A stretch of DNA of 3,569 bases from the sequence record EF204939.1; one strand, written 5' to 3'. Positions 1 to 3,534 of the stretch are shown here, one piece after another. The translations under genes and the position numbers were made by a program. The notes beneath the pieces are model-generated. The model had not been told where the DNA came from, searched no databases, and was given only the letters and a program-made list of their open reading frames with translations. The stretch is from Escherichia phage MS2. How positions within the stretch are numbered: position 1 is the stretch's first letter; each line of letters begins with the position of its first letter.

Positions 1-5
1 GGGTG

Positions 6-23
6 GGACCCCTTTCGGGGTCC
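6..23 (+). promoter_or_regulatory. 5'-terminal stable hairpin (7 bp stem, UUUC loop)
   Basis: Seen directly: 6-12 ggacccc is the reverse complement of 17-23 ggggtcc; loop 13-16 tttc. Corresponds to the known 5' hairpin of MS2-like genomes. Confidence 0.8.
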
Positions 24-30
24 TGCTCAA

Positions 31-36
31 CTTCCT
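31..36 (+). promoter_or_regulatory. Candidate upstream complementary sequence (UCS) able to pair with the maturation-gene Shine-Dalgarno
   Basis: 5'-CUUCCU-3' (31-36) can pair antiparallel with 5'-AGGAGG-3' (116-121): 5 Watson-Crick pairs plus 1 G-U. A long-range SD:UCS pairing about 80 nt upstream is described for MS2 maturation-gene control; the exact boundaries are from memory. Confidence 0.5.
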
Positions 37-115
37 GTCGAGCTAATGCCATTTTTAATGTCTTTAGCGAGACGCTACCATGGCTATCGCTGTAGGTAGC
101 CGGAATTCCATTCCT

Positions 116-121
116 AGGAGG
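116..121 (+). promoter_or_regulatory. Shine-Dalgarno (AGGAGG) for the maturation protein gene
   Basis: aggagg lies 8 nt upstream of ATG 130-132. Confidence 0.85.
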
Positions 122-129
122 TTTGACTC

Positions 130-1311
130 ATGCGAGCTTTTAGTGTCCTTGATAGGGAATCCGAGACCTTCGTCCCCTCCGTTCGCGTTTATGCTGACGG
201 GGAGGTCGAGGATAACTCATTTTCCTTAAAATACCGTTCGAACTGGACTCCTGGCCGATTTAACTCGACTGGGACCAGAACGAATCAGTGGCACTATCCG
301 TCCCCTTACTCTAGGGGAGCGCTTAGTGTCACTTCGGTCGATCAAGGTTCCTACAAGCGCTCTGGGTCATCGTGGGGTCGTCCGTACGAGGAGAAAGCTG
401 GTTTTGGCTTCTCGCTCGACGCACGTTCCTGCTACAGCCTCTTCCCTGTCAGTCAAAATATGACTTACATCGAAGTGCCGCAGAACGTTGCGAATCGGGC
501 GTCGACCGAAGTCCTGCAGAAGGTTACCCAGGGTAATTTTAACCTTGGCGTAGCTTTAGCAGAGGCCAGGTCGACAGCCTCACAACTCGCGACGCAAACC
601 ATTGCGCTCGTGAAGGCGTACACTGCCGCTCGTCGCGGTAATTGGCGCCAGGCGCTCCGCTATCTTGCCCTAAACGAAGATCGGAAATTCCGGTCAAAAC
701 ACGTGGCAGGTAGATGGTTGGAGTTGCAGTTCGGTTGGCTACCGCTTATGAGCGATATCCAAGGTGCATATGAGATGCTTACGAAGGTTCATCTTCAAGA
801 GTTTCTTCCTATGAGAGCCGTACGACAGGTGGGTACTAACGTTAAGTTAGATGGCCGCTTGTCGTATCCAGCTGCAAACTACCAGACTACGTGCAACATA
901 TCGCGACGAATCGTGATATGGTTTTACATAAACGATGCACGTTTGGCCTGGTTGTCGTCTCTAGGTATCTTGAACCCACTAGGTATAGTGTGGGAAAAGG
1001 TGCCTTTCTCATTCGTTGTCGACTGGCTCCTTCCTGTAGGAAACATGCTCGAGGGCCTTACAGCCCCCGTAGGATGCTCCTACATGTCTGGAACAGTTAC
1101 TGACGTAATAACGGGTGAGTCCATCATAAGCGTTGACGCTCCCTATGGGTGGACTGTGGAGAGACAGGGCACTGCTAAGGCCCAGATCTCGGCCATGCAT
1201 CGAGGGGTGCAATCCGTATGGCCAACAACTGGCGTATACGTGAAATCACCTTTCTCGATTGTCCATACCTTAGATGCGTTAGCATTAATCAGGCAACGGC
1301 TCTCAAGATAG
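130..1311 (+). CDS. mat: Maturation protein (A protein; pilus attachment/assembly protein), 393 aa
   Basis: ORF track 130..1311 (393 aa). The translation is near-identical to the MS2 A protein as I recall it (MRAFS...IRQRLSR). First gene of the levivirus layout, preceded by a strong SD. Starts with ATG here. Confidence 0.95.
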   Translation: MRAFSVLDRESETFVPSVRVYADGEVEDNSFSLKYRSNWTPGRFNSTGTRTNQWHYPSPYSRGALSVTSVDQGSYKRSGSSWGRPYEEKAGFGFSLDARSCYSLFPVSQNMTYIEVPQNVANRASTEVLQKVTQGNFNLGVALAEARSTASQLATQTIALVKAYTAARRGNWRQALRYLALNEDRKFRSKHVAGRWLELQFGWLPLMSDIQGAYEMLTKVHLQEFLPMRAVRQVGTNVKLDGRLSYPAANYQTTCNISRRIVIWFYINDARLAWLSSLGILNPLGIVWEKVPFSFVVDWLLPVGNMLEGLTAPVGCSYMSGTVTDVITGESIISVDAPYGWTVERQGTAKAQISAMHRGVQSVWPTTGVYVKSPFSIVHTLDALALIRQRLSR

Positions 1312-1727: not shown

Positions 1728-1905
1728 TAGATTCCGGCCATTCCAACATGAGGATTACCCATGTCGAAGACAACAAAGAAGTTCAACTCTTTATGTATTG
1801 ATCTTCCTCGCGATCTTTCTCTCGAAATTTACCAATCAATTGCTTCTGTCGCTACTGGAAGCGGTGATCCGCACAGTAGAGACTTTACGGCAATTGCTTA
1901 CCTAA
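1678..1905 (+). CDS. L: Lysis protein L (75 aa), +1 frame, overlapping the coat 3' end and the replicase 5' end
   Basis: ORF track 1678..1905. Translation METQSPQQSQ...LLEAVIRTVETLRQLLT closely matches the MS2 L protein, including the hydrophobic C-terminal segment LYVLIFLAIFLSKFTNQLLLSLLEAV. Position matches the MS2 L gene. Confidence 0.9.
   Translation: METQSPQQSQPTPESINRFRPFQHEDYPCRRQQRSSTLYVLIFLAIFLSKFTNQLLLSLLEAVIRTVETLRQLLT
1725..1730 (+). terminator. Tandem in-frame translational stop codons UAA-UAG ending the coat gene
   Basis: Seen directly: taa 1725-1727 immediately followed in frame by tag 1728-1730. In MS2-like phages, ribosomes terminating here are thought to reinitiate at the upstream lysis start codon. 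Confidence 0.85.
1746..1764 (+). promoter_or_regulatory. Coat-protein-binding translational operator hairpin (TR) enclosing the replicase SD and start codon
   Basis: Seen directly: acatgaggattacccatgt. Stem acatg/catgt, bulged A, lower stem gg/cc, loop AUUA; contains SD gagga 1750-1754 and replicase ATG 1761-1763. Identical to the classic MS2 19-nt operator as I recall it. Confidence 0.93.
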
Positions 1906-3398
1906 GAGACGAGTTGCTCACAAAGCATCCGTCTTTAGGAAATGGTAATGACGAGGCGACCCGCCGGGCTTTAGCTATCGCTAAGCTCCGGGAGGCGAAT
2001 GAACGATGTGGCCAGATTAACAGAGAAGGTTTCTTACATGACAAATCCTTGTCGTGGGATCCGGATGTTTTACAAACCAGCATCCGTAGCCTTATTGGCA
2101 ACCTTCTCTCTGGCTATCGTTCGTCGTTGTTTGGGCAATGCACGTTTTCCAACGGTGCCTCTATGGGGCACAAGTTGCAGGATGCAGCGCCTTACAAGAA
2201 GTTCGCTGAACAAGCAACCGTTACCCCCCGCGCTCTGAGAGCGGCGTTACTGGTCAGAGACCAGTGTGCGCCGTGGATCAGACACGCGGTCCGCTATAAC
2301 GAATCATATAAATTTAGACTCGTTGTAGGGAACGGAGTGTTTACAGTTCCGAAGAATAATAAAATAGATCGGGCTGCCTGTAAGGAGCCCGATATGAATA
2401 TGTACCTTCAGAAAGGAGTTGGCGCTTTTATACGGCGTCGTCTCAGATCCGTTGGTATAGACCTGAATGATCAAACGATCAACCAGCGTCTGGCTCAACA
2501 AGGCAGCGTCGATGGCTCATTGGCGACGATAGACTTATCGTCGGCCTCTGACTCCATCTCTGACCGCCTGGTGTGGAGTTTCCTCCCACCTGAGCTATAT
2601 TCATATCTCGATCGTATCCGCTCCCACTATGGAATCATAGATGGAGAGACGATACGATGGGAACTATTTTCCACAATGGGAAATGGGTTCACTTTTGAAC
2701 TAGAGTCCATGATATTTTGGGCTATAGTAAAAGCAACCCAGATCCATTTTGGTAACGCCGGAACCATAGGCATCTACGGGGACGATATTATATGTCCCAG
2801 TGAGATTGCACCCCGTGTGCTAGAGGCGCTAGCCTACTACGGTTTCAAACCGAATCTTCGTAAAACGTTCGTGTCAGGGCTCTTTCGCGAGAGCTGTGGC
2901 GCGCACTTTTACCGTGGTGTCGATGTCAAACCGTTTTACATCAGGAAACCAGTCGACAATCTCTTCTCCCTTATGCTGATCATGAATCGGCTTAGGGGAT
3001 GGGGTGTTGTCGGAGGTATGTCAGATCCTCGCCTATATAAGGTTTGGGTACGACTGTCCTCCCTGGTTCCATCGATGTTCTTCGGTGGGACGGACCTTGC
3101 TGCTGACTACTACGTAGTCAGCCCCCCGACAGCGGTCTCAGTTTATACTAAGACCGCATATGGGAGGTTGCTCGCGGACGCCCGTACCTCGGGTTTCCGT
3201 CTTGCTCGTATCGCGAAAGAGCGTAAGCACTTTAGCGAGAAGCATGACAGTGGTCGCTACATAGCATGGTTCCATACTGGAGGTGAAATCACCGATAGTA
3301 TGAAGTCCGCCGGCGTGCGTGTTATGCGCACTTCGGAATGGCTAACGCCGGTTCCCACATTCCCGCAGGAGTGTGGGCCAGCGAGCTCTCCTCGGTAG
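1761..3398 (+). CDS. rep: RNA-directed RNA polymerase (replicase beta subunit), 545 aa
   Basis: ORF track 1761..3398. Translation begins MSKTTKKFNSLCIDLPRDLS as in MS2 replicase and contains the catalytic YGDD motif. Stop TAG at 3396-3398. Confidence 0.97.
   Translation: MSKTTKKFNSLCIDLPRDLSLEIYQSIASVATGSGDPHSRDFTAIAYLRDELLTKHPSLGNGNDEATRRALAIAKLREANERCGQINREGFLHDKSLSWDPDVLQTSIRSLIGNLLSGYRSSLFGQCTFSNGASMGHKLQDAAPYKKFAEQATVTPRALRAALLVRDQCAPWIRHAVRYNESYKFRLVVGNGVFTVPKNNKIDRAACKEPDMNMYLQKGVGAFIRRRLRSVGIDLNDQTINQRLAQQGSVDGSLATIDLSSASDSISDRLVWSFLPPELYSYLDRIRSHYGIIDGETIRWELFSTMGNGFTFELESMIFWAIVKATQIHFGNAGTIGIYGDDIICPSEIAPRVLEALAYYGFKPNLRKTFVSGLFRESCGAHFYRGVDVKPFYIRKPVDNLFSLMLIMNRLRGWGVVGGMSDPRLYKVWVRLSSLVPSMFFGGTDLAADYYVVSPPTAVSVYTKTAYGRLLADARTSGFRLARIAKERKHFSEKHDSGRYIAWFHTGGEITDSMKSAGVRVMRTSEWLTPVPTFPQECGPASSPR
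2778..2786 (+). other. RdRp catalytic GDD motif (motif C) within replicase
   Basis: Codons ggg gac gat at 2778-2786 encode G-D-D in the context FGNAGTIGIYGDDIICP; frame verified from ATG 1761. Confidence 0.9.
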
Positions 3399-3411
3399 CT
3401 GACCGAGGGAC

Positions 3412-3534
3412 CCCCGTAAACGGGGTGGGTGTGCTCGAAAGAGCACGGGTCCGCGTAAGCGGTGGCTCCACCGAAAGGTGGGCGGGCTTCGGCCCAGGGA
3501 CCTCCCCCTAAAGAGAGGACCCGGGATTCTCCCG
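3412..3534 (+). promoter_or_regulatory. Cluster of short tetraloop-capped hairpins in the 3' UTR
   Basis: Seen directly: 3412-3425 ccccg-taaa-cgggg; 3431-3446 gtgctc-gaaa-gagcac (GNRA); 3451-3462 ccgc-gtaa-gcgg (GNRA); 3468-3481 ccacc-gaaa-ggtgg (GNRA); 3484-3495 gggc-ttcg-gccc (UNCG); 3522-3534 cggga-ttc-tcccg. Confidence 0.75.

Follow-up and report, generated by a model that had tools for sequence, protein, structure and literature searches.

That the A-protein initiators of R17-type and MS2-type phages differ, with AUG in the former and GUG in the latter, has been part of the literature since about 1970. The work of Steitz in 1969 reportedly gave the R17 A-protein initiator as ...AGGAGGUUUGACCUAUGCGAGCUUUUAGUG, a classic AUG initiator, and Fiers et al. 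are said to have described a GUG start for MS2 in 1975. The deposited reference sequences of MS2 (NC_001417, V00642 and GQ153927, the last from the 'ancestral' MS2 used in an evolution experiment) have the GUG start and read GACCTGTG at 125–132, also given as GACCUGUG; these records bear out the GUG initiator that an earlier, sequence-only reading of the DNA analyzed here had attributed to MS2. The R17 genome (EF108465) carries the haplotype GACCTATG (also written GACCUAUG), that is CUAUG, an intermediate state in which an AUG start stands at position 130. The more distant phages fr, GA, and KU1 share the gene order and a Shine–Dalgarno (SD) sequence ahead of the maturation gene. In group II, GA and KU1 likewise have an AUG initiator, in flanking sequence that cannot be aligned around the start, whereas fr starts with GUG in the context cgtGTGcga (record M31635, annotated 'gtg start codon'). 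In MS2, base pairing between the SD and an upstream complementary sequence (UCS) closes a cloverleaf, and ribosomes load only on nascent unfolded strands, a mechanism that PMC4615214 summarizes from Groeneveld 1995 and Poot 1997.

The sequence examined here is the whole 3,569-nt stretch of record EF204939.1 (Escherichia phage MS2), hereafter the window, which is a complete genome of an MS2-group levivirus (Emesvirus zinderi). Its gene order (maturation, coat, overlapping lysis, and replicase) and its length of ~3.57 kb are those of Emesvirus zinderi. The maturation (A) gene occupies positions 130–1311 of the plus strand as a 393-codon open reading frame (ORF) with a match to Pfam PF03863 (Phage_mat-A, E = 7.6e-203), and the relatives have their coding sequence (CDS) annotated at the same coordinates. 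ORFs with the expected Pfam domains were likewise found for the coat gene (1335–1727, Levi_coat), the lysis gene (1678–1905, Phage_MS2_lysis), and the replicase gene (1761–3398, RNA_replicase_B). Membership of the MS2 group is confirmed by the operator hairpin for the coat protein, which lies where the replicase gene starts (1729–1764, plus strand) and matches Rfam RF02359 with 60.6 bits (gathering score 40, E = 4.8e-13); this was the sole real match in Rfam, where levivirus 5′ leaders are not represented by a family. A weak match to TLS-PK3 at 3306–3443, running from the end of the replicase gene into the 3′ UTR, is almost certainly due to chance (21.3 bits versus a gathering score of 80, E = 0.18). 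Full-length nucleotide identity is 94.7% to DL16, the nearest deposited phage record, 92.4% to MS2, and 77.5% to fr, values that also place the genome in the group; the best metagenome contigs reach ~95.1%, and no phage record is identical. The exact coat protein of the window is widespread, being indexed in 114 blocks of an assembly collection, and its exact maturation protein is on record nowhere in the large protein collection that was searched. Together with the identity of at most 94.7% to any phage record, these two observations mark the window as a distinct strain in a common environmental clade.

At the maturation start, the window reads gtttgactcATGcgag at 121–136, of which GACUCAUG corresponds to 125–132. 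The AUG at 130–132 (plus strand, as are all features of the start site), identified by direct reading, by the ORF, and by comparison with relatives, is the true initiation codon: an in-frame UGA stop at 124–126, directly upstream, rules out an N-terminal extension, and the SD AGGAGGU at 116–122 lies 7 nt upstream and is invariant in all aligned MS2-like genomes. The program-made ORF list likewise starts the 393-residue ORF at position 130. The same codon is GUG in the MS2 laboratory lineage and in fr, and the window, with AUG, falls outside this weak non-AUG class. R17 shares with the window AUG130, the SD, the spacing, and the leader, but its spacer ends in CU instead of the UC found at 128–129 of the window, a non-coding dinucleotide that is unpaired in the predicted leader fold, and R17 encodes Ala (GCC) where the window has Val (GUC) at codon 6 (145–147). 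Reference MS2 also shares nt 1–127, the SD, the spacing, and the predicted SD-sequestering cloverleaf; here, CU-GUG replaces UC-AUG, and codon 6 is ACC (Thr).

The 5′ untranslated leader (1–129, plus strand) is predicted to form a 5′ hairpin and a three-arm cloverleaf. In the minimum free energy (MFE) fold, the UCS, AACUUCCU, at 29–36 of the plus strand pairs with 116–123 and would thereby sequester the SD; the 135-nt MFE fold (–60.2 kcal/mol) contains this 29–36:116–123 pairing identically in the window, MS2, and R17. As in MS2, for which this levivirus 5′ UTR structure has been established, the predicted long-distance SD:UCS interaction closes the cloverleaf around three hairpins. Because the leader is identical in sequence to that of MS2, we infer that delayed folding acts as a kinetic trap in the window too, such that initiation would occur on nascent plus strands only. 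That A-protein synthesis is held down by leader folding had been put forward in the sequence-only reading, and the proposal is in line with the MS2 mechanism as outlined in PMC4615214. The leader cloverleaf also contains AUG80, the first codon of an out-of-frame ORF of 49 codons (80–229). This AUG is kept in all aligned genomes but M12, which has UUG; no SD was seen for the ORF, and the conservation of AUG80 probably just reflects leader structure.

Within nt 1–144, the window and MS2 differ at positions 128, 129, and 130 only, with no difference in nt 1–127, and the alignment thus upholds the observation of an AUG set apart from the GUG of MS2 by three adjacent differences behind an unchanged leader. 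These three positions are also the sole polymorphic sites in the first 140 nt that are common to more than one lineage. Such a triplet of differences is not in itself unusual, as the 271 sites that distinguish the window from MS2 genome-wide include nine runs of at least three adjacent differences, versus 1.4 expected under uniform placement. Such runs occur at window positions 160–162, 360–362, 1631–1633, 1940–1942, and 3215–3217, and also at 205–207 and 1878–1880. Several represent switches between serine codon families (UCN↔AGY; UCU versus AGU at 360–362) or other whole-codon replacements, and nearly all split the JP501/M12/R17/MS2 clade from the other (environmental) isolates.

Start-site haplotypes were read from an alignment of nt 1–200 of 16 genomes. 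The UCAUG haplotype, GACTCATG, is present in the window, M12, JP501, DL16, DL1, DL52, MT830620 (a Chinese stool isolate), LT898437 (a German isolate), FrSaffron, FrHenna, and FrBlood, and CUGUG is restricted in this alignment to NC_001417, GQ153927, and ST4, which is 98.9% identical to MS2. In a separate alignment of 16 MS2-like sequences, site 128 is T in 11 and C in five, and site 129 is C in 11 and T in five. DL54 (acTCATG) is likewise of the UCAUG type, bringing the GenBank isolates with this haplotype, other than the window, to 11. M12, JP501, DL16, DL52, DL1, and other environmental isolates match the window exactly over 101–143/144 (with one mismatch in DL1), including the SD, the 7-nt spacer UUGACUC, the AUG, the first four or five codons, and the position of the CDS; they show no difference from the window at the site, and the rest of their genomes differ by ~5–8%. 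A census of deposited records with the 44-mer at 101–144 recovered the window haplotype in 10 records, nine of them identical over the aligned 43–44 nt and the tenth, DL1, with its single mismatch. The equivalent 44-mer of the R17 type gave 220 deposited matches, among which exact CUAUG occurs in R17 only. A further 217 depart from the R17 44-mer by one or two mismatches, and each one listed or aligned belongs to the MS2 lineage and has GUG; 183 of the 220 belong to one host series of E. coli TOP10 F′.

Outside deposited phage records, an exact-pattern search of IMG/VR returned one MS2-like contig, with GUG and 99.7% identity to MS2, and the corresponding search of JGI metagenome contigs returned no MS2-like match. 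Overall, CUGUG is confined to the MS2 laboratory lineage (~217 records), ST4, and this IMG/VR contig. A full-text literature search for the initiator sequences gave no match. Assemblies encoding the exact coat protein of the window contributed nine further near-full-length environmental genomes, and the eight that extend to the site all have gactcATG, although a sample collected by coat-protein identity is biased to the clade of the window and cannot serve to estimate how often GUG occurs in nature. UCAUG is present, then, in every non-MS2, non-R17 MS2-like isolate examined and in 8/8 environmental contigs, and the AUG of the window is not the departure from the norm that the sequence-only reading took it to be. 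The more than 200 laboratory MS2 sequences have all kept GUG, with reversion of GUG130 to AUG in no MS2-lineage record, which argues that the AUG/GUG difference is not strongly selected in the MS2 background; there, GUG130 appears to be stable and not obviously costly.

The direction of change was evaluated from neighbor-joining (NJ) trees rooted with fr, a simple method applied to a group in which recombination is known (DL52 and DL54; PMC3499819). In these trees, the MS2 lineage is the most deeply nested member of the series (JP501,(M12,(R17,(ST4,MS2)))), with 92–100% bootstrap on the relevant nodes, the window belongs to a separate environmental clade inside the MS2-like crown, and DL16/DL52 constitute a third lineage. 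UCAUG is found in all three basal lineages, which identifies it as the crown-group ancestral state. UCAUG is also the majority state of the MS2-like clade, and the CUGUG of MS2 is derived from it. The change from UC to CU maps to the stem shared by R17 and MS2, and that from A130 to G maps later, to the MS2 stem only; the changes in codon 6 fall on the same branches. By this mapping, it was the MS2 lineage, and not that of the window, that acquired the three differences, in two or more steps via an R17-like CUAUG. The start codons of the deeper outgroups are in keeping with this history. At deeper nodes, where the GUG of fr stands against the AUG of group II, polarity is a matter of parsimony on sequences that are barely alignable around the start; in its different context, the GUG of fr looks like an independent occurrence.

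We consider it very probable that the window is a natural MS2-group isolate that keeps the ancestral majority start site and that the CU-GUG of laboratory MS2 is derived. The start-codon polymorphism was already known and is visible in many GenBank records, and the window is ordinary at this site. A caution follows for the use of reference MS2, which is atypical of its species at the maturation start, and the notion of a weak GUG as the means of keeping A protein low does not generalize across these phages. Most natural relatives have an AUG start behind this same leader, an indication that the conserved control lies in leader folding and not in the choice of start codon.

In mechanistic terms, the window would have kept an ancestral start site composed of the SD at 116–122, a 7-nt spacer ending in UC, and AUG130. 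Positions 128–130 likely vary as the least constrained sites in the region, since 128–129 are non-coding spacer bases that belong neither to the SD nor to the predicted UCS:SD helix, and either A or G at position 130 supports initiation. The main limit on A protein would be the same as in MS2, namely the cloverleaf, the SD:UCS pairing, and loading on nascent plus strands. Against this background, AUG would probably confer somewhat higher intrinsic initiation than the GUG of MS2, to be understood as the normal wild-type level and not as up-regulation. In E. coli reporters, initiation from GUG and UUG amounts to 10–100% of that from AUG (bioRxiv 10.1101/063800), and purifying selection on AUG starts is weak in prokaryotes (PMC5622118). 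Given this reporter range and the weakness of the selection, it is plausible that AUG yields more A protein than the MS2 GUG in this context, with a modest difference in expression.

The same substitutions could also be read as adaptive, with the series UC-AUG to CU-AUG (R17) to CU-GUG (MS2), along with the replacement of Val by Ala and then Thr at codon 6 (145–146), representing a down-tuning of A protein, in the lineage from which the laboratory strains came, that is possibly coupled to a small start-codon hairpin. In that case, wild AUG phages, the window included, should make measurably more A protein than MS2. A single evolutionary event underlies this interpretation, the structural tests gave negative results, and we regard it as unlikely.

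The structural tests addressed the possibility that 128–130 co-evolve with a pairing partner, in either a small hairpin (130–133/143–146) or a longer-range stem (125–136/248–256), which would tie the start codon to RNA structure. Both helices occur in predicted folds: the 200-nt MFE fold of MS2 includes the hairpin, and the 260-nt folds pair 125–136 with 248–256, suggesting a 130:252 pair that is G-C in MS2 and A-U in the window. Within the hairpin, the pair 130:146 is A-U in the window, A×C in R17, and G-C in MS2, i.e., one two-sided change with the mismatch of R17 as its phylogenetic intermediate. However, the hairpin performed no better than shuffles. The observed number of two-sided changes was reached in 252 of 500 shuffles, the covariation score fell below the shuffle mean, and the predicted energy of –1.5 to –2.4 kcal/mol was no better than that of shuffled sequences. 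In FrHenna and FrBlood, moreover, 130:146 is A×C while position 130 is unchanged. The long-range 130:252 pair was also rejected, as position 252 is C, U, A, or G among strains with A130 and no covariation is seen. With the whole case hanging on a single evolutionary event, co-evolution with a pairing partner is, in our judgment, very unlikely.

Predicted accessibility of the ribosome-binding site was a further candidate effect of the triplet. Swapping 128–130 among the window, MS2, and R17 backgrounds shifted the opening energy of 113–135 by at most ~2.3 of 10–17 kcal/mol, with a sign that was inconsistent across context lengths, and the effect was rejected. A local AGGU-UUG-ACCU hairpin at 119–129, expected to be more stable in MS2 and R17, appeared in no MFE or centroid fold. 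As a separate observation, the window carries a synonymous U255C change (Gly codon 42) and reads GGCC at 253–256, versus GGUC in all other MS2-like GenBank genomes aligned; GAC at 125–127 can pair with GUC at 254–256 in the 260-nt folds, where C255 of the window would give an A×C mismatch.

The sequence-only reading had favored a different history, in which the lineage of the window turned a weak GUG into AUG by three adjacent substitutions, either raising the yield of A protein or reflecting compensatory tuning. The window does differ from reference MS2 exactly at 128–130 with an otherwise identical leader, and AUG is generally the stronger initiator. The direction is nevertheless reversed: the fr-rooted trees set the changes on the R17 and MS2 branches with UCAUG ancestral and CUGUG derived, R17 documents at least two steps, and UCAUG is common to all of the isolates and environmental contigs examined apart from MS2 and R17. 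AUG at 130 in R17, named beforehand in that reading as an observation that would count against it, was found both in the alignment and in the 44-mer census. Nor was there any sign of compensatory tuning, as the SD, the spacing, and leader positions 1–127 are unchanged relative to MS2 and leave nothing there needing compensation; in addition, both candidate helices failed their controls, and the triplet swaps barely alter accessibility. A conversion of GUG to AUG in the lineage of the window is hence extremely unlikely on present evidence.

An artefact of sequencing, assembly, or cloning, affecting the AUG or the whole triplet, can be given virtually no credence: local errors may show up as runs of adjacent differences, but several laboratories, using several methods, independently obtained the same 44-mer, which is present in nine independent GenBank records, and the same context recurs in eight metagenome assemblies, which excludes the sequencing error at 128–130 that had earlier been allowed for. 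One run that may be such an error lies elsewhere and in another record. A six-base run of differences at 2002–2007 is private to NC_001417, which has GGTGATCGC (Gly-Asp-Arg) within 2001–2009, where all other genomes, ST4 and R17 included, read GAxCGxTGY (Asp/Glu-Arg-Cys); this run has the look of either a long-standing local mistake in the old NC_001417 record or a change private to it.
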